From positions 1,266 to 65,265 of the forward strand of contig JAHFML010000002.1 of the NCBI GenBank assembly GCA_023269085.1: a stretch of 64,000 bases of DNA, read 5' to 3'. The DNA is from a bacterium (GTDB taxonomy: Bacteria > Patescibacteriota > Minisyncoccia > Phycocordibacterales > Phycocordibacteraceae). The translations under genes were made by a program, and so were the position numbers. Numbering within the stretch: position 1 is the stretch's first letter; each line of letters opens with the position of its first letter. This document shows positions 7,819 to 55,044 of this stretch, one piece after another. The notes beneath the pieces were generated by a model. It searched no databases. It had not been told where the DNA came from and saw only the letters and a program-made list of their open reading frames with translations.

Positions 7819-8439
7819 GTGTGGAGCTATATGGCGCTTGCTATCACCAAGGTTGAATCAGCCGATTTTGTAAAAGGGGTCATCGGGACGGATGACGTCT
7901 TCACTGATGGCGTGCCCGAGATCGCCTTCGTCGGCCGCTCAAATGTCGGCAAGTCGAGCCTCATCAACTCGCTCACTGGCCGTAAAGCTCTGGTCAAAGT
8001 GGGGAACAAACCGGGCAAGACGACGGAGCTCAACTTCTTCTCTATCAACAATAAGAAGTGCTATTTCGTCGACCTGCCGGGTTATGGCTATGCCAAGGCG
8101 ACGCCGAAGCAGAGAGGGAAGATCGAGAAGCTCATCCTCTGGTACCTTATGTACTCGGGTGCACAGCCGCGACGAGTTGTCATTATTCTCGATGTGAAGG
8201 CGGGGCTCACGGACTTTGATCAAGAGATGGTCTGCGTGCTCTGCGAGCAGGGGCATCCGTACACAATCGTCGCGAACAAAGTGGACAAGCTGAATCAGAA
8301 GGAGCTCGCGGCCGCCCTAAAGGGGATACGCGCCGCCGCAGGCGGCGCGGAGGTATTCCCGTATTCGACCATGACCGAGCGCAACAAGGCGGAGCTCTTC
8401 GCTGCGGTCGTCGCCGACGAACATGTATCTGACGAATGA
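7819..8439 (+). CDS. engB: ribosome biogenesis GTP-binding protein EngB/YsxC
   Basis: G1 motif GRSNVGKSSLIN, DLPGYG, NKVDK. Confidence 0.8.
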   Translation: MWSYMALAITKVESADFVKGVIGTDDVFTDGVPEIAFVGRSNVGKSSLINSLTGRKALVKVGNKPGKTTELNFFSINNKKCYFVDLPGYGYAKATPKQRGKIEKLILWYLMYSGAQPRRVVIILDVKAGLTDFDQEMVCVLCEQGHPYTIVANKVDKLNQKELAAALKGIRAAAGGAEVFPYSTMTERNKAELFAAVVADEHVSDE

Positions 8440-9166
8440 GCAGGCGAAGGCGAAGGTGCTCGCCCTGAAGTATGACGGCGCCCCGAGCGATGCCTATGCG
8501 GCCGACTGCGCGCGCATCGACGCGAGCGAGCCGTGGGAGTATGTGCTGGGGGCAGCCGACTTCCTCGACTGCACGATTGATCTCTCGGCACGGCCGATGG
8601 TCCCGCGCGATGAGACGGCGCATTGGGTCGCGCGCGTGATTGAAGAATGGAAGCATGAGCCTGCAGTGCAGGCACTCGACCTCTATGCCGGCTCGGGCAA
8701 TATCGGCATCGCGCTCGCCAAGCACCTGCCCACCGCAAACGTCACCTTCAACGAGCTGGATGAAAAATTGTTGCCACAAATAGCGAAGTCGCTTGAGCTA
8801 AACAGCATCGACGCGTCGCGCACGACCCTCATCGCGGGCGACAGTTTAGAAAAAATAGAAGGGAAGTTCGACCTCATCTGCGCGAACCCGCCGTATGTCG
8901 ACCCCGCGAGCGAGAACGAGATGGACCCCGAGATGCGGTATGAGCCGCACATCGCCTTCTTCGGTTCTCTTGACGGCATGGGGCATCACCGCGAGCTCAT
9001 ACGGGAAGGGAAAAGATATCTCACGCCACGCGGCGTGCTCTATGGCGAGTTCGACATGACGCAAGCAGATGAGATTAAAAAATTGCTCGCCGCGAGCGAT
9101 TGGCACTATGAGATATGGGACGACCCCTACGGCCACCCAGGGGTCATGGTGCTTCATGCAAGTTGA
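8423..9166 (+). CDS. prmC: release factor glutamine N5-methyltransferase
   Basis: NPPY catalytic motif, SAM-binding LDLYAGSGNIG. Confidence 0.8.
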   Translation: MYLTNEQAKAKVLALKYDGAPSDAYAADCARIDASEPWEYVLGAADFLDCTIDLSARPMVPRDETAHWVARVIEEWKHEPAVQALDLYAGSGNIGIALAKHLPTANVTFNELDEKLLPQIAKSLELNSIDASRTTLIAGDSLEKIEGKFDLICANPPYVDPASENEMDPEMRYEPHIAFFGSLDGMGHHRELIREGKRYLTPRGVLYGEFDMTQADEIKKLLAASDWHYEIWDDPYGHPGVMVLHAS

Positions 9167-9190
9167 GTAAGGTTCGACCTTACTCACTTG
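9159..9190. repeat. palindromic element family 2 copy (caagttGAGTAAGGTTCGACCTTACTCacttg) overlapping the prmC stop codon
   Basis: Near-perfect 32-nt palindrome; same core as copies at 46146, 46609 and 46874. Confidence 0.7.
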
Positions 9191-9571: not shown

Positions 9572-10285
9572 CTATTTCACCCCGATGGAAGTAAGGAAGG
9601 TGGCGAGCTCGTCGCCCTCGATAGCCCGCCACTTGCCCGACTTCAAATCTTCGAGACGGATGTTGAGGATGCGGGTACGCTCGAGCTCGACGACGACATT
9701 GTGGAGCGCGGCGACCATGCGGCGGATCTGGTGCTTCTTGCCCTCGGTGAGGGTGATATTGAATGACCGCGGCCCCGTCTTGCGCACGAGGCATGGCCGT
9801 GTCATATAGCCCTCGATGTCGACGCCGCCCTCCATATACTTCTTGAAGCTCTCGCGAAGCGGCGTCTCCACGCGCACGCGATATTCCTTGTCATGAGCGT
9901 AGTCGGGGTTCAAGAGGCGATCGGTCACACGGCCGTCGTTGGTGAGGATCATGAGCCCGCTTGAATCCTTGTCGAGCCGCCCGATGGGGAAGACCTCGGA
10001 TAGCTCGGGCGCGAGCTTCACGCTCTGCTTCACATCCTTCTCGCCCTCTTGCGGCGAGTGCGTGATGACGCCGATGGGCTTGTTATAGGCGTAGTAGAGG
10101 AGCCTCTTGGGCGACGCCTTGCCGACCACCTCGACCTTGTCGGCCGCAAGCACCTTGTCGCCGAGCGCCGCAACGCGGCCATTCACGCGCACCGCGCCAC
10201 GCGCGATGATCTCGTCGGCGCCGCGCCGCGTGGCGAGCCCTTGGTGGGCGAGATACTTGTTGAGGCGCATCGGCCATGTGTCCAT
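9572..10285 (-). CDS. rluB: RluB/RsuA-family 23S rRNA pseudouridine synthase (true start MDTWPMRLNKY at 10285)
   Basis: S4 domain at N-terminus, catalytic GRLDKDSSGLMILTNDG motif. The longer ORF upstream of 10285 is antisense to the ABC-F gene and was rejected. Confidence 0.8.
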   Translation of the reverse strand: MDTWPMRLNKYLAHQGLATRRGADEIIARGAVRVNGRVAALGDKVLAADKVEVVGKASPKRLLYYAYNKPIGVITHSPQEGEKDVKQSVKLAPELSEVFPIGRLDKDSSGLMILTNDGRVTDRLLNPDYAHDKEYRVRVETPLRESFKKYMEGGVDIEGYMTRPCLVRKTGPRSFNITLTEGKKHQIRRMVAALHNVVVELERTRILNIRLEDLKSGKWRAIEGDELATFLTSIGVK

Positions 10286-12875: not shown

Positions 12876-12932
12876 AACCGCGTACCAAATCGCTCCTATA
12901 GGAGCGATTTGGTACGCGCATTGCGGACATAA
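12876..12932. repeat. imperfect ~55-bp palindrome (core cgcgtaccaaatcgctcc-tat-aggagcgatttggtacgcg) at the cassette boundary
   Basis: Perfect 18-bp arms plus imperfect outer arms, no U-tract; sits just before repeat copy B. Confidence 0.6.
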
Positions 12933-14955: not shown

Positions 14956-14974
14956 TGCAACACCATGATTGAAA

Positions 14975-15003
14975 CAAAAAATCCGCCAGAGGCGGATTTT
15001 TTG
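14975..15003. terminator. bidirectional rho-independent terminator (aaaaaATCCGCCagaGGCGGATttttt)
   Basis: Perfect 7-bp GC stem flanked by A-run and T-run. Confidence 0.8.
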
Positions 15004-15088
15004 TGGGCGTTTGGCTACAGCGACTTCTCTCCGAGACAAACAAAACGCGCCGGCAAGCCGGCGCGGTGAAGCAGATGGAAGTGAAGGA

Positions 15089-18651: not shown

Positions 18652-19059
18652 TGGTGGAGGTGCGGGGAATTGGACCCCGGTCCGAATCTGGCACTGAAAG
18701 CGCATCTACGACGCATAGTCCTGATTAAGGTTTGATAGTGGGTGCGAAGAATCAGAACGAAATCACGCCACTACGATCCCTTATTTAGCTATTCTTGGCG
18801 GGAGACAAGAAAGCGATTCTTCAGAAGATTCCACCCACCCGTCCGACTGAAGAAACTCGGACGGGTGAATGTCGCCTGGCGAAGTGCGGTTAGGCAGTCG
18901 CGAAGGCGAACGCGAAATCAGACATACCGTAGTACGGAGACTTCACGCTTGCAAGAGTGTTCTTGGCAAGTTTGGTTGCTCGCTAGATTAGCGTGGTAGG
19001 CGAGCGGGCACGGCGTCGCGCGGATTTCAAGGTACAGACCGTCAAAGCCGGTCACCCCC
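18652..19059 (-). ncRNA. ssrA: tmRNA (SsrA)
   Basis: Minus-strand 5' end GGGGGTGACCGGCTTTGACGG (cf. GGGGCUGAUUCUGGAUUCGACGGG). 3' end GGACCGGGGTCCAATTCCCCGCACCTCCACCA forms a tRNA-Ala-like T-arm and acceptor with a G3:U70 pair. Adjacent to smpB. Confidence 0.75.
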
Positions 19060-21643: not shown

Positions 21644-21716
21644 CCGCCTCTAGCTCAATGGTTAGAGCACAGAGCTTATACCTCTGCGGTTCCTGGTTCG
21701 AGTCCAGGGAGGCGGA
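21644..21716 (+). tRNA. tRNA-Ile with anticodon UAU (ileX-like body)
   Basis: Cloverleaf folded by hand: acceptor CCGCCTC/GAGGCGG, anticodon stem CAGAG/CTCTG with loop CTTATAC, T-loop GGTTCGAGTCC, A73. Body resembles minor Ile tRNAs. Confidence 0.8.
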
Positions 21717-21740
21717 CTAGCGATTCTATTATATACTACT

Positions 21741-22437: not shown

Positions 22438-24645
22438 TTATTCCAAATGCGTCTCGGTGCCGAAGGAGAGGGCACGCCGAGCCAGCACAGGATACTTTTT
22501 TAATTCAGGGTCAGCCGCGACGAGGGCCGCGGCCTCGGCGCGCGCCGCTTCGACGAGCTTCAAATTTTTCAACGCCTCCATCGCGAGGTCAGAGATGCCC
22601 CACTGCCGACCGCCGGCGAGCTCGCCCGCGCCGCGGAGCGCGAGGTCGTATTCGGCGAGCTCGAAGCCGTCTTTGGCGGTGGTGAGTGCCTTCATGCGCT
22701 CCTTGGTCGCAGGGCCGAAGGACTCGGGGAGCGCGAAGCAATAGGCTTGATTGTTGGAGCGAATAACGCGGCCACGGAGCTGATGGAGCTGGGCGAGACC
22801 GAATCGCTCGGCGCCCTCGATGAGAATCACCGTCGCGTTCGGCACGTTGACGCCGACCTCGACCACCGAGGTCGCGACGAGGATGTTGATCGCGCCTTGT
22901 TCAAATCTCTTCATCACCGCCTCTTTTTCAGCCGGACGCATCTTGCTGTGCAGAATGTCGATGACGGCATTGGGGAATATTTCTTTTTGTAAACGCGCGG
23001 CCTCGGCCTTGACCGACTTGGCTTGGAGCGCGAGCTCTCGAGCAGGGTCGGGCTCGTCAATGCGCGGACAGATGACATACGCCTGCCGCCCTTTCGCGAG
23101 TTCACTCCGCACCCGCGTGTAGGCGAGCTCGCGCTTCTCGGGGCCGAGCACCTCGGTAATAATCGGCTTGCGGCCCGAAGGCATCTGGTCGAGGAGGGTG
23201 AGGTCGAGGTCGCCATAGAGCGTGAGCGCGAGCGTACGCGGTATCGGCGTCGCCGTCATCGAGAGGAGGTGCGGCGCGACGACGCCCTTACTCGCGAGCT
23301 TCTGTCGGTGCATCGTGCCGAAGCGATGCTGTTCGTCGATGATAGCGTAGGCGAAATATTTGAAGGCAAGCGACTTCTCGACGAGCGCATGCGTGCCGAT
23401 GACAATCGGTATTGTCCCCTCGGCGACGCGCTTGCGGAATGCGGGCTTGCTGATTTTCGCCGACTCCTCGTAGCGGACGCGAGAGGGGAAGACGCGGCAC
23501 TCGCTCCCCGTGATGAGGCCGATAGATATCGGGTGCTTTTTGAAATACGAAACAAAGGTCGAGAAATGCTGTTTGGCGAGGATCTCGGTCGGGCAGAGGT
23601 AAGCGACCTGGAGCGTCCCCGCGATGCGACCCCGAGGTACCGACGTTGCGACGAGGTAGGCGGTCGCCGCGGCGACCGCGGTCTTCCCGCTCCCCACATC
23701 GCCCTCGAGGAGTCGGAGCATCGGGTACTTTTTTTCAAAGTCAGCGACGATAGCGTCGATAGCGTGCCGTTGCGCCGCGGTCGCGGGGAAAGGGAATGAA
23801 GCTATGAAGTCAGCGAGCGACTTTTTATCGACCGAGACCGGTAGTGCCTCTTCGCGCAGGTGTTCTTGGCGGCGCTTCTGCATCACGATTTGGAGCGCGA
23901 AGATCTCTTCGAAGGCGAAGCGCTTGCGCGCCGCCTCCTTGTCCGCGAGCTTCTTCGGCGCGTGGACGAAGACGAGCGCGGTGACGAGGGAGGGGAGCTT
24001 GTAGCGTGCGAGAATGTCGGCAGGTATCGGGTCTTCGATAGTCTCATGCACGCCAGCTTCAAAGGCTTTGCGCACCGCGTGCATGAGCCAGAGCGATGAG
24101 ATGCCCATGCTCTCGGGGTACATCGGGTACAACTCAGCCTCGCGGGTGGACACTAGGTGTCCACCCGCAGACGGGTGGACACCTAGTGTCCACCCGTCTG
24201 GATTGAAAAGCGAAGTGTGTACCGCCTCGGGGTCAAGACCAGCCTTCGTGATCTCGGGGTTCGCGAGATACGCCTTCGCGCCCTCGCCGGCGATGCGCCC
24301 GCTTACCTTCACCTGCATGCCGTCGTGGAGCGACTTCGCGATATACGGCTGAGAGAACCACATCATCTTTATCTTCCCCGAATTGTCCTCGAGCCACGCC
24401 TCGGCGAGTGGGCGGCGACTCTTCCACGCCTTGCGCACCTCCGGCTTCCGCACGGTGCCATAGAGTGTCACCTCGCCACCCGCCACCGCACCCGCTATCG
24501 TGCCGGTCGGCCCCGCGTTCTCGTAGCGCGAAGGGAAGTGATAGAGCAAGTCGCGCACGGTCTTGATCCCGAGCTTCGCGAGCGCGCGCTTCTGCTCCAC
24601 CTTCATCCGCGGGAAGTGCTTCTCTAGGGGGTCTTGTGGATTCAC
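22438..24645 (-). CDS. recG: ATP-dependent DNA helicase RecG (carries an in-frame palindromic insertion)
   Basis: Wedge domain, helicase motifs GDVGSGKT, DEQHRFG, TATPIPRT. Confidence 0.9.
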   Translation of the reverse strand: MNPQDPLEKHFPRMKVEQKRALAKLGIKTVRDLLYHFPSRYENAGPTGTIAGAVAGGEVTLYGTVRKPEVRKAWKSRRPLAEAWLEDNSGKIKMMWFSQPYIAKSLHDGMQVKVSGRIAGEGAKAYLANPEITKAGLDPEAVHTSLFNPDGWTLGVHPSAGGHLVSTREAELYPMYPESMGISSLWLMHAVRKAFEAGVHETIEDPIPADILARYKLPSLVTALVFVHAPKKLADKEAARKRFAFEEIFALQIVMQKRRQEHLREEALPVSVDKKSLADFIASFPFPATAAQRHAIDAIVADFEKKYPMLRLLEGDVGSGKTAVAAATAYLVATSVPRGRIAGTLQVAYLCPTEILAKQHFSTFVSYFKKHPISIGLITGSECRVFPSRVRYEESAKISKPAFRKRVAEGTIPIVIGTHALVEKSLAFKYFAYAIIDEQHRFGTMHRQKLASKGVVAPHLLSMTATPIPRTLALTLYGDLDLTLLDQMPSGRKPIITEVLGPEKRELAYTRVRSELAKGRQAYVICPRIDEPDPARELALQAKSVKAEAARLQKEIFPNAVIDILHSKMRPAEKEAVMKRFEQGAINILVATSVVEVGVNVPNATVILIEGAERFGLAQLHQLRGRVIRSNNQAYCFALPESFGPATKERMKALTTAKDGFELAEYDLALRGAGELAGGRQWGISDLAMEALKNLKLVEAARAEAAALVAADPELKKYPVLARRALSFGTETHLE
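24144..24195. repeat. palindromic element family 1, two tandem units (GGGTGGACACtagGTGTCCACCC gcagac GGGTGGACACctaGTGTCCACCC) in frame inside recG
   Basis: Each unit is a perfect 10-3-10 palindrome; encodes GWTLGVHPSAGGHLVSTRE. Confidence 0.85.
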
Positions 24646-28712: not shown

Positions 28713-28776
28713 AGAAACACAAGAACCCCGCGCGGCGCCTCTCGGCGCCGCGCGGGGTTCTTAAGTGACAAGTTCG

Positions 28777-32275: not shown

Positions 32276-33115
32276 ATGCGCACGCTCCTCACCTCAACCC
32301 TCAAGATGTTCGTCGCCTCTTCTCTCACCCTCCTCGCCTTCTACGCGATCAACGCTTCTGCACAATCAGCCTGGACTCCAGCTCCAGCTAACGCTCCCTC
32401 AGGCAACGTGGCAGGCCCCCTCACCACGGGTGACGTGTATCAGATTCGCTCTGGTAATCTCGGTATGCAAGGAGCTTTGTTGATGGGAAATCAAACGGAT
32501 CAAGCACCGGGCGTATATTTTGCCCCCAATGGATATCCGTATTCATATATAGACAACAGCAAGGGAGATACTCGAATTGTGACACAGGATGCCAACGCCA
32601 ATGGGTATGGGAGTCTAAAATTTATAGTTAAGAATGGTGGCAATGTGGGGATTGGGACAGACAGTCCAAATAGTTCAAAAGGAACCAATGGTTATCTTGA
32701 CGCCAAAGACGTCTATCTCCGTGACGCCGGGAAGTGGGCGAGTGAGGTTGGTGGGAGTGGTTCGGGGGGACATTGGGCACCAGTTAATGGGAGAGAGATA
32801 TCTTGCACGATGAACGCTTTTAATTTGTGCAGACAAATGATAAATTCAATAACTTTCTTTGCGAAAGTCGAAAACAATAAACCGTACACAAGAATTGTTT
32901 CATCAAGTTCTTATGGAAGGAGCTATGCGCGTGATACAGGGTGGATTATTGGTACGACACAATCGTATAGCCCTGGAACGTGTGGATTTATAGGCTCGAA
33001 TCCTAGCATACTCATTTCGATGGGTTTGGATACGTATCCAAACCTTAGGGGTTCTTTTTCTGATGCAGGAGATGGTAGTGTTGAAACTCCCTGCTCCTCA
33101 AACTTCCCTTGGTAG
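32276..33115 (+). CDS. secreted or surface protein with signal peptide; C-terminal half AT-rich
   Basis: Signal MRTLLTSTLKMFVASSLTLLAFYAINASA; Gly/Asn-rich. Confidence 0.5.
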   Translation: MRTLLTSTLKMFVASSLTLLAFYAINASAQSAWTPAPANAPSGNVAGPLTTGDVYQIRSGNLGMQGALLMGNQTDQAPGVYFAPNGYPYSYIDNSKGDTRIVTQDANANGYGSLKFIVKNGGNVGIGTDSPNSSKGTNGYLDAKDVYLRDAGKWASEVGGSGSGGHWAPVNGREISCTMNAFNLCRQMINSITFFAKVENNKPYTRIVSSSSYGRSYARDTGWIIGTTQSYSPGTCGFIGSNPSILISMGLDTYPNLRGSFSDAGDGSVETPCSSNFPW

Positions 33116-33192
33116 ACTTGAGCTCTGTTCAGTTTGCACATACCTGGTGTGCACAATGAGAAATCCCGCGCAGGAGCGCGGGATTTCTCATG

Positions 33193-33515
33193 ATGGTCGA
33201 GGTCGATAAGCCGAATTCTGTCTGACCCTTGCGGGCGAGGCGATCATTTATCTGGGTCCCTCGTTGCCTCGGGACTCGAGCGGCACCCCGCCGGCGCAGA
33301 GCGCCGGCGATACGGCCTTGCATGCGGGTAAGGATTTTGCCGTTTCAGCCGGACTAAACCGGGTCGTTTCTGTTCGCACCTCGGCTCTCACGAGCGACGG
33401 GCGTTACCCGCTACCTTTCTGCCGATTATAACATCGGCGCATGTTCGGACTTTCCTCCCGACGATTGCTCGCCGAGCGATCGCCTAACCTTGACCTCTGC
33501 TACCATACCACATTT
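33193..33515 (-). ncRNA. rnpB: RNase P RNA (bacterial type A, reduced) - candidate
   Basis: Minus-strand 3' region ...CAGATAAATGATCGCC...GACAGAATTCGGCTTATCGACC matches the conserved rnpB 3' end (TAGATGAATGACTG...ACAGAACCCGGCTTATCGGTC). AGTCCGG P4 5' strand is present. About 400-nt ORF-free gap, followed by a hairpin terminator at 33158-33189. Confidence 0.55.
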
Positions 33516-35991: not shown

Positions 35992-37668
35992 ATGGTTCGA
36001 CGCCTTATCGAACGCCTGACGGCACCGGTACGCGGCCTGCATCAGGCCGCGTACTTGCTTGCCGCTCTCACGCTCGCCTCGCAAGCGCTTGCGCTCTTGC
36101 GCGACCGCACCTTCGCGCACGTCTTCGGGGCCGGGCAGACGCTCGATCTCTACTATGCCGCGTTTCGCGTGCCCGACCTCGTCTTCGCGCTCGTCTCCTC
36201 GCTCGTCTCCGCCTATGTGCTCATTCCGCGGCTCACGGGGCTCGATAGGGAAGGCACGCGGCGGCTGCTCTCCGAGTCGGCGTCATTCTTGCTCATCGCC
36301 GGCGGGCTTCTCTGTGCTCTGCTTGCGGTATTTATGCCGCAGGCTCTCCGGCTCCTGTATCCCGACCTTATTGCGTCGCCGGCACAAACGGAGTTCGTCG
36401 CTCTCTCTCGCCTCCTGCTCATACAACCGATCCTGCTCGGCCTCTCGGGCGTGTTCGGGAGCGTAACGCAGGTGCATCGTCGCTTCGTCCTCTTCGCACT
36501 CTCTCCGGTGCTCTATAATCTCGGCATCATCGTTGGCGCGGTCGCGCTCTATCCGCGCTTCGGGCTCATGGGCATCGGATGGGGCGTCGTTATCGGCGCA
36601 GTCGCATATCTGCTCGTGAATGTGCCAGTCATTATTTCCGCAGGAGTACTGCCGCGATTCGTCCTGCCAGAGTGGTCGCGCTTAGCGAGCATCGTACGCG
36701 ATTCGGTCCCGCGTTCGCTCGCGCTCGGCATGGGTTCGATAACGGCGCTCGCGCTCACCGCGCTCGCGTCCCGAGTCGGGACGGGCGCCGTCTCCGTCTT
36801 CACCCTCGCGGGTAATCTCGAGGCGGTGCCGCTCGCGCTCATCGGCTCCTCGTATGCGGTTGCGGCGTTTCCGGCACTCTCCGAAGCGTCGGAGAAAAAT
36901 GATAATGGCGAATTCTCGCGGGTGCTGTCGACCTCGGCACGGCACATCATCCTATGGTCGATGGTATCTCTCGGCCTCATTGCGGTCTTGCGCGCCCACC
37001 TTGTGCGCGTCATTCTCGGGACTGGCGCCTTCGATTGGGACGCAACGCGTCTCACCGCCGCGCTCCTGGTCGTCCTCGCGGTCGGTCTTGTCGCGCAGGG
37101 GCTGGTGCTCCTCTTCTCGCGCGCGCTGTATGCCGCGCGGCAATCCTGGCGGCCGCTCATGTATCAGATCGCAGGGGGATTGCTCACGGTCTTGCTCGCC
37201 GTAATATTTCTGCGGGCACCACAAAACGGATTTTTATCGACGCTCAACGCCTTCTTGAAGGCGGGTGACACAGGGACGGGAGCTATTCTACTCCTCGCTC
37301 TCGCCGCGACCCTCGGCCAGATATTCTTGGCTCTCCTCTCGCTCGCCGCTCTCCGTAGCGTTACGCCCGGTCTCGCCCGGTCGCTCGTGCGCCCTACCAT
37401 CGACGGAATGATAGCGGCTGTCGTTGGCGGTGCGGCTGCGCATGCCTCTCTCGTCATCGCGGGAGGCATAGCACCGCTAACGACTCTGCTCGCGGTCTTC
37501 ACGCAAGGGTTCGTTGCGGGTATCGTCGGCCTAGTAGCGGCTGGTCTCGCGCTCTTCTTCGTCGAAAATGAAGAGTTCAGAAGTGTTATAACAGCACTCA
37601 AGCGTCTCGGGCGCGCTCGGGCCTCCGGCATTCTCGCGCCATCGGCCGAAGAGCCGATCAAATCATGA
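35992..37668 (+). CDS. murJ: lipid II flippase MurJ/MviN
   Basis: 14 TM, conserved FRVPDLVFALVSSLVSAYVLIP N-terminal region. Confidence 0.8.
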   Translation: MVRRLIERLTAPVRGLHQAAYLLAALTLASQALALLRDRTFAHVFGAGQTLDLYYAAFRVPDLVFALVSSLVSAYVLIPRLTGLDREGTRRLLSESASFLLIAGGLLCALLAVFMPQALRLLYPDLIASPAQTEFVALSRLLLIQPILLGLSGVFGSVTQVHRRFVLFALSPVLYNLGIIVGAVALYPRFGLMGIGWGVVIGAVAYLLVNVPVIISAGVLPRFVLPEWSRLASIVRDSVPRSLALGMGSITALALTALASRVGTGAVSVFTLAGNLEAVPLALIGSSYAVAAFPALSEASEKNDNGEFSRVLSTSARHIILWSMVSLGLIAVLRAHLVRVILGTGAFDWDATRLTAALLVVLAVGLVAQGLVLLFSRALYAARQSWRPLMYQIAGGLLTVLLAVIFLRAPQNGFLSTLNAFLKAGDTGTGAILLLALAATLGQIFLALLSLAALRSVTPGLARSLVRPTIDGMIAAVVGGAAAHASLVIAGGIAPLTTLLAVFTQGFVAGIVGLVAAGLALFFVENEEFRSVITALKRLGRARASGILAPSAEEPIKS

Positions 37669-39533
37669 ACCAAGATACTATCCGCAACTTTTCCATTATC
37701 GCGCACGTCGACCACGGCAAGTCGACGCTCGCTGACCGCATGCTCGAGCGCACGGGCGCCATCCCCGAGCGTCTGATGCGCGACCAGGTACTCGACCGCA
37801 TGGACCTTGAGCGCGAGCGCGGCATCACGATCAAGATGCAGCCCGTAAGAATGGTTTACCATTCTGGAGGTCCCGAGCGAAGCGAGGGACAAGAGCGGGA
37901 CTACATCCTCAATCTCATCGACACGCCCGGGCACATCGACTTCTCCTATGAAGTGTCGCGCGCATTGAATGCTGTCGAGGGAGTGCTCCTACTCGTCGAT
38001 TCGACGCAGGGCGTGCAGGCGCAGACACTGACGACGCTTGCGATGGCGCGCGCGCAGAGTTGCGTCATCATCCCCGTCATCTCAAAGATTGATGCACCCG
38101 CCGCGCGCGTCGAGGAAGTGTCGCAAGAGCTCGCCGACTTACTTGGTGTCGCGCGAAGTGAGGTGATCGCGGTATCGGGTAAGACCGGTGCGGGTGTCGA
38201 TGAGCTGCTTGAGGCGATCGTACAAAAAATCCCGCCGCCGCAATCTTCGTGGACATCGGATGTCCACAGCAACCGTGGACATCCGATGTCCACGAACGTG
38301 GGTGAGCCGCGCGGCCTCGTCTTCGACTTCTCGTATTCGAAGCATCGCGGCGTCGCGGTTTATCTGCGCGTCTTCGACGGCGTCTTCAAAAAGGGCCAGC
38401 CGCTCATCTTCAAGGCGGCAGGGAAGGAGTTCGTCGCGCTTGAGACCGGCATCTTCACGCCCGAAGAGACGCCCGCCACGGAGCTCGCGGCGGGCGAGAT
38501 CGGCTACATTGTCACGGGGATCAAAGAGGCCGGCGTCGTCGCGGTCGGCGACACGGTCGGTGTTGCGAAAGGTGCGCTCCCGGCCTTCCACGGCTTCGAG
38601 CGGCCGCGGCCGGTCGTGTGGGCGTCGGTGTATCCTGAGAGCCAAGACGATCTCCCGCTCCTGCGACAATCCCTCGAGCGCTTGCGGCTCTCGGACTCGT
38701 CACTCTCTTTTGAAGAGGAGTCATCCGGCGTGCTCGGTCGCGGCTTCCGGTGCGGCTTCCTCGGCCTCTTACATCTCGAGATAATCACCGAGCGCTTGCG
38801 GCGCGAGTTCGGTCTCGCGCTCATCGTCACGATCCCGACTATCTCGTATGTCGTTACAACGACGAAGGGCGCGCGGGAGGTCGTCTACACGCCGGCGAAG
38901 TTCCCCGAATACGGCGATATCGCGCTTATCGAAGAACCGTGGGCGAAGGTCGTCATCATCACGCCGCCGGACTCGCTCTCAGCGCTCATTCAGCTCCTCT
39001 ATGAGCACGAGGCGAACACGCTTGGCACCGAGACCTATCATGACGGGCGCGTCGAGATGACGGTCGAGATGCCGCTCCGCGAGCTCATGCGCGGATTCTT
39101 CGACACGCTCAAGAACATTTCATCGGGCTATGCGTCGCTCTCCTATGAGCTCCTCCCCGAGCGCCTGGCGGATGTCGTCCGGCTCGATGTCTTGGTCGCT
39201 GAAGAGGCCGTGCCCGCCTTCGCGCGCGTTATTGCGCGTCGCCGCGTGGTCGAAGAGGCAGAGAAGATGGTCGAGAAGCTGCACAGCGTCCTCCCGAAGC
39301 AGCTCTTCGTCACCAAGATCCAAGCGAAGGCGCTCGGGCGCGTCATCTCCTCGAAGACGCTCTCGGCAATGCGCAAGGATGTGACCGGCTATCTTTATGG
39401 TGGCGACGTCTCGCGCAAGAACAAGCTCCTCGACAAGCAGAAGCGCGGCAAGAAGAAGATGCTCGAGCGCGGAACGGGCAAAGTCAACATTCCCGAAGAA
39501 GTTTTCATGAAGATGGTGCGGGCTGATGCGTAG
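37665..39533 (+). CDS. lepA: elongation factor 4 (LepA), carrying an in-frame palindromic insertion
   Basis: [20 protein letters not shown], LepA C-terminal domain YGGDVSRKNKLLDKQKRGKK. Confidence 0.9.
   Translation: MNQDTIRNFSIIAHVDHGKSTLADRMLERTGAIPERLMRDQVLDRMDLERERGITIKMQPVRMVYHSGGPERSEGQERDYILNLIDTPGHIDFSYEVSRALNAVEGVLLLVDSTQGVQAQTLTTLAMARAQSCVIIPVISKIDAPAARVEEVSQELADLLGVARSEVIAVSGKTGAGVDELLEAIVQKIPPPQSSWTSDVHSNRGHPMSTNVGEPRGLVFDFSYSKHRGVAVYLRVFDGVFKKGQPLIFKAAGKEFVALETGIFTPEETPATELAAGEIGYIVTGIKEAGVVAVGDTVGVAKGALPAFHGFERPRPVVWASVYPESQDDLPLLRQSLERLRLSDSSLSFEEESSGVLGRGFRCGFLGLLHLEIITERLRREFGLALIVTIPTISYVVTTTKGAREVVYTPAKFPEYGDIALIEEPWAKVVIITPPDSLSALIQLLYEHEANTLGTETYHDGRVEMTVEMPLRELMRGFFDTLKNISSGYASLSYELLPERLADVVRLDVLVAEEAVPAFARVIARRRVVEEAEKMVEKLHSVLPKQLFVTKIQAKALGRVISSKTLSAMRKDVTGYLYGGDVSRKNKLLDKQKRGKKKMLERGTGKVNIPEEVFMKMVRADA
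38249..38293. repeat. palindromic element family 1 variant, two tandem units (GTGGACATCgGATGTCCAC agcaacc GTGGACATCcGATGTCCAC) in frame inside lepA
   Basis: Perfect 9-1-9 palindromes; encodes WTSDVHSNRGHPMST in a loop between LepA domains. Confidence 0.85.
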
Positions 39534-46099: not shown

Positions 46100-46145
46100 T
46101 ATTCAAAATAATACCGCAAATACGCGGATCAGGCGAACACACATT

Positions 46146-46175
46146 GAGTAAGGTCGAACCTCACTCAACTTACTC
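46146..46175. repeat. palindromic element family 2 copy (GAGTAAGGTCGAACCTcactcaaCTTACTC) at the tsaD 3' end
   Basis: Same arms and core as the 9159 copy. Confidence 0.7.
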
Positions 46176-47398
46176 GGTAAGTGAACGGCGGCCGGAGGCG
46201 ACAGGGGTGTGGGTGAATTCTTCGCGAAGAGCACGGTAGAAGCCGGCGAGCGCGATCATGATGGCGTTGTCGGTCGTGAGTGCCGCCGGCGGTATGCGTA
46301 GCTCAACGGGTGGACACCTAGTGTCCACCCGAGTCGCCACCGAATGCTTGAAGATGCGGCGGATGTGGGTGTTCGCCGAGACGCCGCCGCCGATGACGAG
46401 CGTCTCGGCACCAGTCGCTTCGAGCGCGCGCTCGGTCTTCTTCCACAACACCTCGGCAACGGCGTCTTCGAATTCTCGCGCGAGCTCATGCTTCTCGCGC
46501 TCGGTCACCTCGGGATTTTTCTTCAACAAATACAACACCGCCGTCTTGAGCCCGGCAAAGGAGAAGTCGCACGTCGCATCATTCAGCATTGGCCGCGGCA
46601 AGGTTGGTGTGAGTAAGGTCGAACCTTCCTCATTTGATGAGTAAGGTTCGACCTTACTCACGCTACTACGCGCTATCTCAGCGAGACGCGAGATCTCCGG
46701 CCCGCCCGGGTAGGGGAGCGAGAGCATCCGTGCGACCTTGTCAAAGGCTTCGCCGACCGCGTCGTCGCGTGTCGCCCCGACGAGCTCATACTCAAGCCAG
46801 CTCTTCATCACGACGAGCTCGGTGTGGCCACCCGAGATGAGGAGCGCGAGCACCGGCAAAGCGACGTCTTTCACTTCAAGGTTCGACCTTGAAGAAGATT
46901 CTCGCGCGAGCGCGGCCATGATATGGCCCTCCATATGATTGACCGCGACGATCGGCTTCTCCCATGCGAGGGCGAGGGCGCGTGCGAAGTTCACGCCGAC
47001 CCAAAGCGCTGGCTCGAGGCCGGGGCCCGCGGTGACGGCGATGACGTCGATATCGGGTCGTTCAGATTCCGAGACGAAGTCGAGGAACGCTTCAGTGAGG
47101 CCGGGCTCGCGCGACAAAATCTCTGCGATTTTGTCGCGCGTCTCTTCGCGCATCGCTTGCATATCCTCGTGCAAGAGCTCAGCCTCTTCAAGCGCCGCCT
47201 CAAGTATCGGGACGAGATTCTTCGCGTGTTCGCGTTTGGCGAGCATCGGGTAGACGCCGCCATACTCGCGGTGCAGATCTATCTGCGAGAGGAGCGCATT
47301 CCCGAGTACGGCAAACTCCGCGTTCGCCTCATCGCCTGTCGCCTCAACGATAGCAATCGCCGTCTCGTCACAGCTGGTCTCGATAGCGAGAATTTTCA
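46170..47398 (-). CDS. tsaD: tRNA N6-adenosine threonylcarbamoyltransferase TsaD, about 409 aa, expanded by three in-frame palindromic insertions
   Basis: MKILAIETSCDETAIAIV N-terminus, HMEGH motif. Typical TsaD is about 340 aa. Start set at MKIL because the track start is a non-ATG codon. Confidence 0.85.
46308..46330. repeat. palindromic element family 1 unit (GGGTGGACACctaGTGTCCACCC) in frame in tsaD
   Basis: Identical to recG unit B; encodes part of ...ATRVDTRCPPVELR... Confidence 0.85.
46609..46661. repeat. compound palindromic element family 2 in frame in tsaD (gtGAGTAAGGTCGAACCttcctcatttgatGAGTAAGGTTCGACCTTACTCac)
   Basis: Encodes ...SSVSKVEPYSSNEEGSTLL... Confidence 0.8.
46874..46894. 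repeat. palindromic element family 2 variant (CTTCAAGGTTCGACCTTGAAG) in frame in tsaD
   Basis: Perfect 21-nt palindrome with the same AAGGTTCGACCTT core; encodes ...SNLEVKD... Confidence 0.75.
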
Positions 47399-47419
47399 TA
47401 ATGATGGTAGTATAGCGCA

Positions 47420-47980
47420 ATGCAACGAAATGACCTCCTCGTCTGGATGGATCTCGAAATGACCTCGATTCATGACGTGCTCAAGGACAAGATAACCGAG
47501 ATCGCGGTCGTTCTCACCGACAAAGACCTGAATGTTGTCGTCGAAGGACCTGATATCGTTATACATGCCGACCCGAGCGACTTTGCACATATAGCGGCGG
47601 ATGCCCGCGCGGTGCACAAGGCAAATAATATGGAAGCGCTCTCTGCCGCGAGTACAACGACACTCGCCGATGCTGAAGCGCAGACGCTCGCTTTTCTCAA
47701 AGAGCACATCAGCGAAAAATCATCACCGCTCTGCGGCAACACCATTCACATGGACCGCCACTTCCTTCGCATCCACATGCCGACACTCGACGAGTACCTC
47801 TTTTATCGCTGTATCGATGTCTCAAGTATCAAAGAGCTGGCGCGTCGTTGGGCGCCAGAGATATATGAGGAGGCAGAACACCGCAAGGGGGTGAAGCCGC
47901 ATCGCGCCCGCGCCGACATCTATAACTCAATCAGTGAATTGAAATTCTATCGCGACACTTTTTTCAAATTCAATCCTTGA
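47420..47980 (+). CDS. orn: oligoribonuclease
   Basis: LVWMDLEMT DEDDh exonuclease motif I. Confidence 0.8.
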   Translation: MQRNDLLVWMDLEMTSIHDVLKDKITEIAVVLTDKDLNVVVEGPDIVIHADPSDFAHIAADARAVHKANNMEALSAASTTTLADAEAQTLAFLKEHISEKSSPLCGNTIHMDRHFLRIHMPTLDEYLFYRCIDVSSIKELARRWAPEIYEEAEHRKGVKPHRARADIYNSISELKFYRDTFFKFNP

Positions 47981-48830: not shown

Positions 48831-49772
48831 CTACCGCACAAAGCGGGTGTAGATGCCGGCGGGGATGACGCGGTCGCCTGTGGTCTCTTTGATGAAGAGC
48901 TCGCCACATTCACCATGCGTCTCGCCGCCTGCGCCGAGCATGGTCGAGGCGAAAGCGCTCTCGACCGCCTGCGCGAAAGAGCGCGGGGCATAGCCGGCGG
49001 CATAGCCGTTCAAGAGGAAGAATGAGCCCGGTGTGTCGGCGAGCAGGTCGTGCAGGGTAATGAGCAATTCGGGGAGCGCTTCTTCGATCTTCCACACCTC
49101 GCCCTTGGCGCCGCGCCCGAAGGCGGGCGGGTCGAGGATAATGCCGTCGTAGTGAACGTCGCGGCGCAGCTCGCGGCGGGCGAAGGCGAAGGCGTCGTCG
49201 AGCACCCAGCGGATAGCGTCTTCGCTCACCCCCGAGCGGCGCGCGTTGTCGTGCGCCCAGTCGAGCGACTGCTTGGACGCATCGACATGCGTCACCTTCG
49301 CTCCCGCCTGTGCCACAACGACCGAGGCGATACCGGTGTAACCGAAGAGGTTAAGCACGTGGGGAGAAATGTCGGACATCGTAAGTCCTACATCTGATGT
49401 AGGACTTACGATGTCCGACATAGAAATTGCCTTCACGCGCCCTTCGAGCCACTCCCAGTTAGGCGCCTGCTCGGGGAAGATGCCCGTGTGCTTGAAGCTC
49501 GTGAGCGCGGCGGTGAACTTCGCGTCTCGCCACGCGAGCTCCCATACGTCGGGAACGGGCTTTCGGACGTCCCAGCCGCCACGCTTATCGCGGAAGACGA
49601 AGACCGCGTGCGCATCATGCCATAATTCCGGTCGCCGCTTCGCCCACAACGCTTGCGTCTCTGGCCGCGCGACAATGACCTCGCCGAAGCGTTCGAGCTT
49701 CATGTTATCGCCAGAGTCGATGAGCTCGTAATCGCTCCAAGGAAGTGTTGTGAGATGTTGGTCGTATTTCAT
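48831..49772 (-). CDS. class I SAM-dependent rRNA methyltransferase (RlmI/RlmK-like) with an in-frame palindromic insertion
   Basis: FGYTGIASVVVAQAGA SAM motif I, ILDPPAF motif IV. Confidence 0.6.
   Translation of the reverse strand: MKYDQHLTTLPWSDYELIDSGDNMKLERFGEVIVARPETQALWAKRRPELWHDAHAVFVFRDKRGGWDVRKPVPDVWELAWRDAKFTAALTSFKHTGIFPEQAPNWEWLEGRVKAISMSDIVSPTSDVGLTMSDISPHVLNLFGYTGIASVVVAQAGAKVTHVDASKQSLDWAHDNARRSGVSEDAIRWVLDDAFAFARRELRRDVHYDGIILDPPAFGRGAKGEVWKIEEALPELLITLHDLLADTPGSFFLLNGYAAGYAPRSFAQAVESAFASTMLGAGGETHGECGELFIKETTGDRVIPAGIYTRFVR
49371..49419. repeat. palindromic element family 1 variant (GTCGGACATCGTAAGTCCTACATC | GATGTAGGACTTACGATGTCCGAC), perfect 24+24 palindrome in frame in the methyltransferase
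   Basis: Encodes MSDIVSPTSDVGLTMSDI; shares the GGACATCG/CGATGTCC core with the lepA copy. Confidence 0.85.
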
Positions 49773-51790: not shown

Positions 51791-52108
51791 AGTGCCAACA
51801 TTGTAGCAGAAACGAGAGAAAATAAAATAGGTGGTTGCGGATGATTGGCGATATGGTAGAATACAGGTGGCAGACAGATAGCGTGAGCGTTGTGCTCGCA
51901 CGTCGGCCTGCCGTCGCCCAAACATAGGAGAAAGAAACATGAGCGACAAGCAGAAAAAACCGACGACCGACGACAACGGCGTGAATTACGAGGAGGTGCT
52001 CGCTCGCTTCCTCGCAGCGAGTGCACGGTATTTTGCTTCTAAGTCCGGCGAACAAATCGCCTGATTTCATGAAGCCCGGCGGCCCACGTGGCCGCTTTTT
52101 CTATTTTG

Positions 52109-52180
52109 TGACCCCACGGGGAATCGAACCCCGATTTACGCCGTGAAAGGGCGCTGTCCTAACCGTTAGACGATAGGGCC
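52109..52180 (-). tRNA. tRNA-Glu (anticodon UUC)
   Basis: CGCCCTTTCACGGCG anticodon arm as in bacterial tRNA-Glu; acceptor with two G-U wobbles. Confidence 0.8.
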
Positions 52181-52251
52181 CTGCCTGCCGACAGACAAGC
52201 GTTGCTTCAACCTTACCATTTTCGACATGAAATGCTAGGATAGGGGGACAC

Positions 52252-52338
52252 GGAGAGGTGGCAGAGTGGTCGAATGCACTGGTTTCGAAAACCAGCAGGG
52301 GCGAAAGCTCCTCGTGGGTTCAAATCCCACCCTCTCCG
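52252..52338 (+). tRNA. tRNA-Ser (anticodon CGA)
   Basis: Acceptor GGAGAGG/CCTCTCC, anticodon loop TTCGAAA, long variable arm, T-loop GGTTCAAATCC. Confidence 0.85.
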
Positions 52339-53858
52339 CAGAAAGAAACTTCCGAATCCGAAAGGTGGGAAGAAGCCCGCGCCGAAGGCGCGGGAGTGGG
52401 CAAAAGATGCCGTCGCTCCGCGACGAATTGGGACGGGACGGGCGTGGCGAACTGGGCGGATTTGTCACGAACCAAGGGGTTCGTTCCGATTTTTTGGACG
52501 AACGATTTGATTTGGTACAAATCAGATGAGGGGGACAAAAAATTGGCTTGTTTCGTATCTAAAATCCATTCCCGCAAGGGTTCGACCCAATTATTTCTTC
52601 CGCGTTCAAAATCTTTCTCTTTTTGACGCAAAGCGGCGAGAGAGCGCATGAGCATATCTTTTCGCTTCAAGTAAATATCCTTTGGTACATCACCATCGAG
52701 ATACGTAGAAACCAGTTTTTCCATGCGCTCCTCGTTCGCTTTGATACTGTCGTAAAGATTTTGAACCTCGCTTTGCGACGCTCTAATTTCCTCACGCTCC
52801 CACACTTTCACTTTGTTCAACATCCAATCGGTATAGCGATCGCAAAGCGAAATTGTTTGAAGCCGTGCACAGAGTTGCCGTGCAAGCTCACTTTCTTGCA
52901 AATACGCTTGCGAACAGTGGCCGCGCTTTTTCGAGCACCGATAATACCGATAACGACCACCAGATTTTCCAGTTGCCCACTGCGCGGAAATCATCGAACC
53001 ACACTCGGCGCATCGAAAAAGACCAGTAAAAGGAAAATCATGCTTGATTTTCCTTTTACGCGGCCGTTCTTTCGTTTGCAATACTTTCTGCACGGCTTCA
53101 AACAATTGCGGAGAAATAATTGGCTCAAAGTTTCCATCAAACCATTCCTGTCCATGCTTCACAAAACCAAGATAGGCACGATGCGTAAGAAGCCGTTTGA
53201 TGGAAACTTTGGCAAGTGGCGTTTGGTTACGAGTCACCACGCCCAAGTCCGCCAAAAATTGAGCGAGCGAAATATAAGTGTGCGACCCCTTGGCGTATTC
53301 TTGAAAAGCTAGATTTACCACGCGAGCATTTGTCGGATGAGGCTCAATATTTCTCACCTTCGGATTATTGGTGTAGCCAAAGGGAGCTAAATTCAACCAT
53401 TCGCCTCGTCTCAATTTTTGGCGGACGCCACGCTTGATATTGTCAGATAGATTATCACTGTAATATTTCGATTGCCCAAACGCCACTTGCAACATAAAGA
53501 GCCCTTGCGGGGTTGGTTCAAACCAAAATGTCGGAAAGCGCAAAGACACAACCTTGTGAGTGTCTACGGCGTAAATAACTCGTCCACCGTCAATACTGTT
53601 ACGCGCGAGGCGGTCGGGATGCCACGCCAATATACCGACACCATCTAGTTTTTCAATTTTCGCGAACATTTCGCCGAACACCTCGCGCCCCGGTGTCTTT
53701 GCGCTTTTCGACTCTTGAAATTCCTCAAGAATTTCAAGATTTTCTTTACGCGCCAATTCTCGCAGTTCAAAAAGCTGTGCCTCAATGGACATCACTTGTC
53801 GGTCATCATCCTCGGTACTCTTACGCGCGTATAGAAAATATTTTGGTTTGATATTCAT
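52320..53858 (-). CDS. large serine recombinase (true start MNIKPKYFLYARKST at 53858; last ~45 codons lie within IR1-L)
   Basis: Resolvase catalytic domain YARKSTEDDDRQVMSIEAQ (Ser nucleophile), recombinase domain, Cys4 zinc ribbon CAECGS...YRCSKKRGHC, C-terminal coiled coil. Confidence 0.85.
   Translation of the reverse strand: MNIKPKYFLYARKSTEDDDRQVMSIEAQLFELRELARKENLEILEEFQESKSAKTPGREVFGEMFAKIEKLDGVGILAWHPDRLARNSIDGGRVIYAVDTHKVVSLRFPTFWFEPTPQGLFMLQVAFGQSKYYSDNLSDNIKRGVRQKLRRGEWLNLAPFGYTNNPKVRNIEPHPTNARVVNLAFQEYAKGSHTYISLAQFLADLGVVTRNQTPLAKVSIKRLLTHRAYLGFVKHGQEWFDGNFEPIISPQLFEAVQKVLQTKERPRKRKIKHDFPFTGLFRCAECGSMISAQWATGKSGGRYRYYRCSKKRGHCSQAYLQESELARQLCARLQTISLCDRYTDWMLNKVKVWEREEIRASQSEVQNLYDSIKANEERMEKLVSTYLDGDVPKDIYLKRKDMLMRSLAALRQKEKDFERGRNNWVEPLREWILDTKQANFLSPSSDLYQIKSFVQKIGTNPLVRDKSAQFATPVPSQFVAERRHLLPTPAPSARASSHLSDSEVSFCGEGGI
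52336..52466. repeat. IR1-L: 131-bp inverted repeat starting inside the last 3 nt of tRNA-Ser(CGA)
   Basis: Perfect reverse-complement match to 53883-54013. Contains internal hairpin CCCGCGCCgaaGGCGCGGG. Confidence 0.9.
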
Positions 53859-53882
53859 ATTGCTTTTAGATACGAAACAAGA

Positions 53883-54013
53883 GACAAATCCGCCCAGTTC
53901 GCCACGCCCGTCCCGTCCCAATTCGTCGCGGAGCGACGGCATCTTTTGCCCACTCCCGCGCCTTCGGCGCGGGCTTCTTCCCACCTTTCGGATTCGGAAG
54001 TTTCTTTCTGCGG
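53883..54013. repeat. IR1-R: inverted partner of IR1-L, 25 bp upstream of the recombinase start codon
   Basis: 131/131 identity as reverse complement. An extra 17-nt match (cttgtttcgtatctaaaa) lies just outside. Confidence 0.9.
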
Positions 54014-54254
54014 TGATGTATTAACCTTTGCGCGAACCCACTTCGCACGCGCGGAGCGCGTGGTGGCTTGAAACTGCACTGTACGCTCCGATTGCGTGGC
54101 GATGCGAACCAATGCGCCTCGGACACGCTCGCGGACTCGCGTGTGCAAAAACCAAAAAATTTCCTTGCATTTTCCTCGCGTCTCCTCCCCCCACCCCTCC
54201 ACCGCGAAGCGGAAAAAGAAATGGAAAGGAAATTTTTGGTTTTGCTTCGCCGTT
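54010..54254. repeat. IR2-L: 245-bp inverted repeat overlapping IR1-R by 4 nt
   Basis: Perfect reverse-complement match to 56021-56265; contains C-rich tract cctccccccacccctcc. Confidence 0.9.
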
Positions 54255-54347
54255 AGCAATTGAAAAAATCCATAAATAATGCTATCCTTGTTTTGTGAGC
54301 AAAGAAAGTAACGACTCATATTTCTATACTATCAAAAGTAGCATACT

Positions 54348-54545: not shown

Positions 54546-54555
54546 ATTTACAAAT

Positions 54556-55041: not shown

Positions 55042-55044
55042 GGA

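Follow-up and report, generated by a model that had tools for sequence, protein, structure and literature searches.

REP/REPIN-like palindromic elements in frame within conserved Patescibacteria genes, probably mobilised by a RAYT-like transposase

Known hairpin repeats and the palindromes of a Patescibacteria genome

Repetitive extragenic palindromic (REP) sequences, their doublet form (REPINs) and the REP-associated tyrosine transposases (RAYTs) have been described as linked systems (Bertels & Rainey 2011, PMC3116915; Bertels et al. 2017, PMC5581495). Here we analyse a set of short, mostly perfect palindromes in a 64,000-nucleotide stretch (hereafter the window) of a Patescibacteria genome (GenBank assembly GCA_023269085.1, contig JAHFML010000002.1, positions 1,266 to 65,265 of the forward strand), where they lie in frame within recG, lepA, tsaD and a methyltransferase gene. 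We propose, with a probability of roughly 0.75, that these palindromes are REP/REPIN-like miniature elements of Patescibacteria (Paceibacteria/Kaiserbacteria-like), mobilised by a RAYT-like transposase and surviving in frame in loops.

As in REP/REPIN-RAYT systems, the units described here are short palindromic stem-loops, their inverted doublets fold as one long hairpin, copies appear to be dispersed, some of them directly past stop codons, and a Y1/HUH transposase gene is flanked by its hairpins (at seven of seven loci) and is syntenic in two genomes (L017 and L018). The differences concern both repeat and enzyme. The stems are perfect and the apex is the conserved part, with no 5′ GTAG/CGTC tag and with variable stem flanks (CGC, GAC, AAC, TGC) that mostly extend the stem; the hairpins that flank the transposase gene are in direct orientation; and the protein, at ∼231 amino acids with a long C-terminal helical part (vs. 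165 amino acids for the 4ER8 chain), scores under the NCBIfam RAYT cut-off. Copy number appears low, and, unlike the extragenic norm for REPs, all five units of one repeat family in the window (F1) and three of the five of another (F2) are inside open reading frames (ORFs).

Intragenic REPs have precedents. Di Nocera et al. (2013, PMC3733652) found REP singles and dimers inside uvrA, uvrB, dnaE2, ligase and helicase genes, many of the intragenic copies being in replication or repair genes, in Opitutus terrae, Thauera, Thioalkalivibrio and other hosts. A sequence-only reading of the window, which had first picked out the palindromes and taken them for selfish DNA, had called such elements rare outside Rickettsia; to hold them undescribed elsewhere is mistaken. 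The present elements resemble these REPs in occurring in frame as singles or dimers, sometimes two per gene, often in DNA-repair or helicase genes, and in being read as neutral loop or linker insertions; they differ in belonging to another phylum and another repeat family, in marking loop positions that are hot spots in over 100 orthologs and where one family takes the place of another, and in that intragenic copies dominate rather than form the exception. Intragenic REPs and Rickettsia palindromic elements (RPEs) being already known, what we describe is not a new principle; it is most likely a new REP-like family.

RPEs are roughly 100–150 bp long, whereas the units described here measure 19–25 nt, the doublets ∼50 nt and the largest insert 54 nt. 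As described in PMC3733652, RPEs too are palindromes that lie in frame where a reduced genome has functional genes, and it is their DNA and not their peptide that is conserved; RPE-4 and RPE-6 are placed there in the CGTC-tagged group, which has no dedicated transposase, in contrast to the family described here, with its associated transposase gene. The core of the selfish-DNA reading holds, the nearest relatives of the elements being not only the Rickettsia elements it had named but rather REP/REPIN-RAYT systems, given the RAYT-like gene flanked by the hairpin.

Insertion sequences of the IS200/IS605 group (IS608 and ISDra2 TnpA) share the Y1/HUH fold and flank their transposase on either side with subterminal hairpins of direct orientation; here, however, the two flanking hairpins are identical and dispersed without the gene, and the unit in the window is a bare hairpin, with no tnpB present. 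In comparison with a miniature inverted-repeat transposable element, the element here is the hairpin itself, throughout, and the flanking sequences have diverged at the only clean empty site. The small dispersed repeats (SDRs) of Nostoc-type cyanobacteria, an account of which by Elhai and colleagues reportedly appeared in Genome Research in 2008, are said to be dispersed hairpin-forming repeats of 21–27 nt that can nest in each other and occasionally lie in conserved genes, an RNA intermediate having reportedly been proposed; we know of no transposase associated with them. By that description they too are very small dispersed hairpins, of other sequences and from another phylum. In the literature searched we found no link of REPs or RAYTs with Patescibacteria, the candidate phyla radiation (CPR).

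Hairpin families and their sites in recG, lepA, tsaD and a methyltransferase gene

Perfect hairpins with loops of up to 6 nt were counted in the window and in 30 dinucleotide-preserving shuffles of it. With stems of at least 9 bp there are 32 in the window (vs. 2.6±1.4 in shuffles), with at least 10 bp 21 (vs. 0.67), and with at least 12 bp 12 (vs. 0.07). Two families recur. The first, F1, has the form GGACAY-NNN-RTGTCC, the architecture GGACA-[Y NNN R]-TGTCC being common to a recG/tsaD type and a lepA type (F1b), and its pattern GGACAYNNNRTGTCC occurs five times (vs. 0.00 in shuffles); the second, F2, has the core AAGGT-TCG-ACCTT, and its pattern AGGTYSRACCT occurs five times (0.03 expected). 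Because the counts of both patterns and of hairpins generally far exceed those in shuffles, a chance origin of the palindromes is excluded.

F1 units have a 10-3-10 or 9-1-9 geometry, with 19–25 nt per hairpin, and occupy three separate places in the 64 kb, all intragenic: a doublet in recG, a doublet in lepA and a singlet in tsaD. The F2 units occupy four places, three of the five units being within tsaD and two directly past genes. Identical copies of 23–30 nt stand at unlinked loci, one such set joining recG and tsaD and another positions 9164 and 46638. Folded as DNA, a singlet has an energy of −13.6 kcal/mol; hairpin z-scores run from −5.8 to −13.3, those of the long hairpins (recG, lepA, the methyltransferase gene and tsaD site 3) from −10 to −13, and the doublets of recG, lepA and tsaD site 3, taken as single-stranded DNA, each form one hairpin of 22–25 bp.

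The window has a G+C content of 56%, so that it hardly represents the high-GC genome for which it had been taken, and is ∼91% coding on a rough ORF map; the closest homologs of its TsaD and RecG proteins carry the names Paceibacterota, Minisyncoccota, Kaiserbacteria or Parcubacteria. All the elements that the sequence-only reading had placed in recG, tsaD, lepA and the methyltransferase gene are present there, within unbroken ORFs, and solved homologs align on both sides of the inserts, which upholds their in-frame placement at loop or linker positions. Translation of the inserts appears probable. A single hairpin sequence is read in all three frames, as GWTLGVHP, as GGHLVST (recG) and as RVDTRCPP (tsaD), and stems change in a compensatory manner between orthologs; conservation is thus of the DNA palindrome and not of the peptide, as had been suggested. 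Among the peptides that the inserts would encode are GWTLGVHPSAGGHLVSTR and MSDIVSPTSDVGLTMSDISPH.

In recG (minus strand, ORF 22438–24645), the sequence and the hairpin scan define a REPIN-like inverted F1 doublet at 24143–24196. Units A (24144–24166, loop TAG) and B (24173–24195, loop CTA) both have the form GGGTGGACAC-NNN-GTGTCCACCC, separated by the spacer GCAGAC. They are not in tandem, as first thought, but mutually reverse complementary, and jointly make up a 25-4-25 palindrome spanning the whole doublet, which folds as a single 25-bp hairpin (−35.7 kcal/mol, z = −11.5); the stem of unit B extends further, as a 15-3-15 hairpin at 24168–24200. The doublet encodes GWTLGVHPSAGGHLVST, a segment that falls between two blocks aligned to Thermotoga maritima RecG (1GM5).

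At the recG site of the closest relative (L019, 86% DNA identity over the gene), the F1 doublet is replaced by an F2 hairpin, CAAGGTTCGACCTTG, for a net size difference of 45 nt. The corresponding RecG segment, between the motifs SLF and LYP(M/I/V)Y, has 9–10 residues in 70 of 120 orthologs and is enlarged, up to 37 residues, in the other 50; peptide signatures of F1, F1b or F2 hairpins are found at this site in 36 of the 120, RTSDVL..GHPMS marking the lepA type and QGRTLQQGSTL or QGSTL marking F2.

The lepA gene (plus strand, ORF 37665–39533) carries an inverted F1b doublet at 38246–38297, composed of unit 1, GTGGACATC-g-GATGTCCAC (38249–38267), and unit 2, CGTGGACATC-c-GATGTCCACG (38274–38294), which is inverted relative to unit 1; here too two units had rightly been seen. 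The doublet forms a single hairpin of 22 bp (−27.5 kcal/mol) and encodes WTSDVHSNRGHPMST. LepA is ∼15 residues longer than Thermus thermophilus EF4 (5IMQ) between the IPPP motif that ends the G-domain and domain II, and these extra residues are missing in most of 38 representatives.

The insertion in the S-adenosylmethionine-dependent methyltransferase gene (minus strand, ORF 48831–49772) comprises 54 nt in frame, at 49368–49421, and encodes MSDIVSPTSDVGLTMSDI. Its palindrome is perfect and slightly larger than the 24+24 arms initially assigned to it, being 26-1-26 (53 nt, 49369–49421), with a fold energy of −29.1 kcal/mol. To judge by its sequence, the element may be composite, an outer GGACATC...GATGTCC (F1b) hairpin bearing a nested GTAAGTCCTACATC-t-GATGTAGGACTTAC hairpin at its apex. 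The syntenic ortholog in another genome (L007, GCA_027422545.1; 297 vs. 313 amino acids) lacks exactly the 18 codons corresponding to 49368–49421, which makes that site a clean empty site, although the flanks have diverged there, so that a target-site duplication is undefinable. In an alignment to PDB 2IGT the insert just precedes motif I. Other indels between the window and L007, of 8, 10 and 20 residues, lack palindromes; hairpins thus do not account for all the indels.

The tsaD gene (46170–47420, minus strand) holds four hairpin sites, where a single hairpin had been seen, and these account for the extra length of its product (409–416 vs. ∼335 amino acids for solved TsaD proteins, in an alignment with 8IEY). 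Sites 2, 3 and 4 are hypervariable among 32 orthologs. Site 4 (46307–46331, minus) is an F1 singlet, CGGGTGGACAC-cta-GTGTCCACCCG, encoding RVDTRCPP, whose identity to recG unit B, already recognised from the letters, extends over 25 nt. In both L020 (84% DNA identity) and the more distant L007 the site is occupied by TGTGGATATC-G-GATATCCACA; since these two share another hairpin, the GGGTGGACAC hairpin of the window is the derived state. The window form is longer than that of L020 by 12 nt, and thus adds only four residues relative to the nearest relative, below the 8–18 residues that had been given for such elements.

Site 3 (46610–46660, minus) is an inverted F2 doublet encoding SKVEPYSSNEEGSTL, with the units TGAGTAAGGT-cga-ACCTTCCTCA (one mismatch) and TGAGTAAGGT-tcg-ACCTTACTCA separated by the spacer TTTGA and a fold energy of −22.4 kcal/mol; it coincides with a gap of roughly 16 residues relative to solved TsaD structures. 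The window, L020, L007 and L014 each bear a different hairpin or inverted doublet at this site. That of L020 is a perfect 47-nt palindrome (23-1-23) whose two half-units are individually imperfect, symmetry being preserved in the doublet and not in the single units. Site 2 (46874–46894, minus) is an F2-like singlet, CTTCAAGGT-tcg-ACCTTGAAG, encoding SRSNLE; its counterparts are TCCAAGGT-CGA-ACCTTGGA in L020, with a compensatory change from T.A to C.G, and TACAAGGT-cga-ACCTTGTA in L014.

Site 1 (47108–47140, minus) behaves differently from these three hypervariable sites. It is a 14-5-14 palindrome, CGCGCGACAAAATC-tctgc-GATTTTGTCGCGCG, encoding TRDKIAEILSR, and its peptide (ETRxKIAxILxRE) is kept in 32 of 32 aligned TsaD orthologs. 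Pairing is 15 of 16 in the window and in L020, and 16 of 16 in L007 by way of a paired A>C/T>G change, and L014 retains the peptide, although just 8 of its 16 pairs remain. Site 1 is an old insertion that is by now a fixed, conserved protein part in this clade. The view that all the segments are recent lineage-specific insertions thus does not extend to site 1, and sequence comparison marks the recG and tsaD sites as hot spots at which one hairpin has given way to another.

The two F2 units outside genes are both singlets. One, TTGAGTAAGGT-cga-ACCTCACTCAA (one mismatch; 46144–46168), lies 2 nt 3′ of the tsaD stop codon, the classical extragenic position of a REP. The other, TGAGTAAGGT-tcg-ACCTTACTCA (9164–9186), overlaps the stop codon of a methyltransferase-like ORF (8423–9166) and shares all 23 nt with the tsaD copy at 46638–46660.

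A RAYT-like transposase family flanked by the same hairpins

A 20-base hairpin pattern was sought in a genome collection (one genome per species) and in metagenomes. Six genome loci were found, five of them from CPR metagenome-assembled genomes, and on three of these CPR contigs a Y1_Tnp ORF lies within 0.6 kb (8–570 nt) of the exact hairpin and is flanked by hairpins with the same apex. Another genome locus, in Sansalvadorimonas (L004), follows a tRNA and was set aside, as it looks like an unrelated terminator. The genome from which the window comes was not among the six. The metagenome scan gave seven loci, among them L014, the TsaD ortholog described above; L010–L013 and L015 differ in composition, are probably chance or unrelated matches, and were not accepted as family copies.

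The link between hairpin and enzyme is seen in L006, where two copies of the hairpin bracket a 235-amino-acid ORF with an HUH motif and a Pfam Y1_Tnp match of 25 bits (cut-off 23); in L002 and L001, homologs of this ORF adjoin the hairpin. Of this family 205 members, ∼231 amino acids long, are detectable; they come from Paceibacterota and Kaiserbacteria and are labelled transposase or hypothetical. All of 21 aligned members match Pfam Y1_Tnp, and the conserved motifs are HVYNRG, MPNHxHLxLKE (HUH) and VYIMVKNPFE with its invariant Tyr. The Tyr of GTYKSR was rejected as the catalytic residue, since several members have Phe there and the invariant Tyr lies in VYIMVKNP. An AlphaFold model (predicted local distance difference test score, pLDDT, 87.6) has as its top PDB match in Foldseek 4ER8 (E = 1.6e-5), the Escherichia coli REP-associated tyrosine transposase in complex with a REP hairpin, followed by the TnpA proteins of ISDra2 and IS608. 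A RAYT-like HUH/Y1 single-strand DNA transposase of ∼231 amino acids, its gene flanked by the hairpin, is most likely the cognate enzyme.

Seven distinct RAYT-like loci were compared (L001, L002, L006, L016, L017, L018 and L021, with L022 as a second assembly of L021). In all seven, both ends of the gene have a hairpin with a GACAC-NNN-GTGTC apex at a distance of at most ∼25 nt, or one overlapping the stop codon, and the lower stem of these hairpins differs among genomes. In both L017 and L018 the gene has a T2SS-F gene on one side and a pilin gene on the other, a shared syntenic position that suggests vertical inheritance.

One member of the family, P0242, is present in the ENA sample (ERZ27297709) that also holds the TsaD of the window. 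Its Logan copies, L021 and L022, have CGGGTGGACAC-cta-GTGTCCACCCG upstream of the gene and GACGGGTGGACAC-cta-GTGTCCACCCGTCT downstream, and the downstream hairpin is identical to window positions 24170–24199 in recG, a 30-nt identity (GACGGGTGGACACCTAGTGTCCACCCGTCT). A third copy in L021 is intergenic, after a ROK-family gene, and the hairpin copies of L016 are likewise intergenic. The tetranucleotide composition of L021 correlates with that of the window at 0.965, the highest of all loci. From the shared sample, the composition and the hairpin identity we infer that the P0242/L021 locus belongs to the genome of the window.

Several further observations concern the surroundings of these genes. 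In L021 (9940–9990) one arm is duplicated beside the flanking hairpin, GGGTGGACAC-C-GGGTGGACAC-cta-GTGTCCACCC, and L006 (80–115) shows a comparable arm duplication, ...GTGTCCACCC-GTGTCCACCC; such duplications are possible traces of DNA cut and re-joined at the edge of an arm. The RAYT-like gene of L017 has a second, far longer hairpin on its upstream side (23-3-23; 9883–9931), with the apex GGGACAC-gta-GTGTCCC. The loops contain GTAG in L017 and CGTC in L018, the tags of known REP super-families, placed in the loop and not at the foot; these loops are the only places where the two tags turn up. Among P0241–P0360, many RAYT-like genes are on contigs of 1–2 kb, and L021 and L022 stop at the downstream hairpin; from such short contigs ending at the hairpin, hairpins appear to break short-read assemblies.

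Origin of the hairpins

A mechanism that joins these findings can be outlined. The enzyme would recognise the folded hairpin on single-stranded DNA and cut and re-join it, as IS200/IS605 and RAYT enzymes do, and hairpins would thereby be copied or exchanged, preferentially at or next to existing hairpins, a bias that would lead to doublets, to nesting (as in the methyltransferase element) and to replacement at the same site. With the genome ∼91% coding, most landings would be intragenic, and selection would purge copies that break the frame, place a loop TAG in frame or disturb the fold, leaving survivors at a few tolerant loops and linkers; because only tolerated landings survive, a few loop positions would become hot spots with family replacement across lineages. 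The inserts would be translated, neutral loop extensions, of which old ones may become fixed protein parts (as at tsaD site 1), and template switching from arm to arm may help to keep the palindromes perfect. The repeat families, the in-frame positions, the empty and replaced sites, the linkage of the hairpin to the RAYT-like gene and the RAYT-like fold of its product are observed; that this enzyme moves the copies in the window is what they suggest.

Several results weigh against this explanation. Neither a transposition event, nor a target sequence, nor a target-site duplication is definable; no RAYT-like gene is present in the 64-kb window (tblastn E>5), and L021 is tied to the window by sample, composition and hairpin identity, not by one contig. 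The L006 ORF scores 30.7 bits with NCBIfam REP_Tyr_transpos (cut-off 80), a sequence-profile search of the family against PDB gave no match, the gene-flanking hairpins stand in direct and not inverted orientation, and the canonical 5′ GTAG/CGTC tag was not found at the hairpin foot. No transposase was identified for the F2 family or the site-1 palindrome of tsaD. Exact 20-base copies are rare in public data (six genome and seven metagenome loci), so that copy number per genome may be low. Finally, hairpins persist at orthologous sites with compensatory changes, which points to long vertical residence and evolution in place besides movement.

This last point leads to the rival that fares best, in which palindromes arise and stay perfect in place by template switching during replication (snap-back, or quasipalindrome correction), one arm templating the other without any transposase. 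Such a process would fit tsaD sites 1, 2 and 4, which stay perfect palindromes while their stems change symmetrically, the L020 doublet at site 3, perfect over 47 nt although its units are imperfect singly, and the half-arm duplications adjoining the RAYT-flanking hairpins of L006 and L021. It leaves unexplained, however, how identical sequences of 23–30 nt come to stand at unlinked loci, why the hairpin flanks the transposase gene in seven of seven loci, why the apex motif is conserved across distant CPR lineages, and how one family replaces another at a single site in close relatives, as at recG in L019. We therefore regard template switching as an improbable origin of the hairpins, though it may contribute to the perfection of the palindromes.

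The hairpins might also be mRNA or DNA structures selected by the host (a translation pause at a domain boundary that assists co-translational folding, a site for an RNase or other protein, a terminator or stabiliser) and not selfish DNA. The inserts stand at domain junctions (the end of the recG wedge, the boundary of the lepA G-domain and domain II, the position before methyltransferase motif I), but tolerance alone predicts such positions equally well. Copies lie directly past stop codons, a position from which REPs have known effects on mRNA, and pairing at tsaD site 1 is 15–16 of 16 in three lineages, yet L014 retains the site-1 peptide with its pairing lost; and close relatives differ in whether a site has hairpins, of which family and how many, with many orthologs lacking any. 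Host selection as the explanation is accordingly held to be very unlikely.

An assembly or sequencing artefact, whether chimeric amplification palindromes or misassembly at inverted repeats, might be thought of where many RAYT-like genes are on very short contigs that end at a hairpin and hairpins disturb assembly, but it is close to refuted by the recurrence of the elements in independent assemblies from different sources (NCBI, ENA, JGI, Logan) and samples, by long ORFs that stay open and in frame through all of them, and by a site architecture common to orthologs. An adaptor or amplification artefact, a CRISPR repeat, an intein, an intron and translational bypass were likewise dropped because of the size of the elements, their open frames and their reappearance in separate assemblies.

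Other hairpins of the window were noted, not all of them members of the repeat families. A perfect 40-nt palindrome with no spacer, CGCGTACCAAATCGCTCCTA/TAGGAGCGATTTGGTACGCG (12879–12918), is intergenic, between two small ORFs without Pfam match, and unrelated in sequence to F1 and F2. Three further palindromes are intragenic and perfect: GGTTTGGATAC/GTATCCAAACC (33023–33044), in a 279-amino-acid ORF without Pfam match, with an apex like the F1 variants of L002 and L007; GTACGCGGCCTG-cat-CAGGCCGCGTAC (36028–36054), near the N-terminus of MurJ; and a GC-rich 15+15 palindrome (57217–57246) inside a GT4 glycosyltransferase ORF. A 16-4-16 hairpin (33156–33191) directly 3′ of the RNase P RNA resembles its terminator, and other A/T-tailed, terminator-like hairpins are at 14974–15004 and 28721–28762.

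The tmRNA (18652–19059) and RNase P RNA (33191–33495) genes are both on the minus strand. ARAGORN predicts a tRNA-Ile with anticodon TAT at 21644–21717; the TAT anticodon is uncommon in bacteria, in which AUA is usually read by a modified CAU anticodon. The stretch 52001–56000 is low in G+C (44% vs. about 57% elsewhere), has tRNA genes on one side (Val 51715, Glu 52108, Ser 52252) and could represent a foreign island, in which the long ORF called at 52320–53984 (minus) may be spurious.

We put forward tentatively, at somewhat less than even odds, that these elements represent an undescribed REP-RAYT system of Patescibacteria, whose hairpins would lie mainly in conserved genes, turn over at loop hot spots and keep their palindromy through the enzyme or template switching, and which would continually supply loop insertions and differences in protein length throughout this very large radiation, some of them fixed (as at tsaD site 1). 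If the proposed origin of the hairpins is true, many lineage-specific insertions in conserved Patescibacteria proteins would be remnants of hairpin repeats and not adaptive features or annotation errors, and would offer a natural experiment on the insertion-tolerant loops of RecG, LepA, TsaD and other proteins. The hairpins, which appear to break short-read assemblies, could also serve as strain markers. The reach of REP-RAYT systems would extend to a phylum with tiny, gene-dense genomes, in which repeats have hardly any non-genic space.

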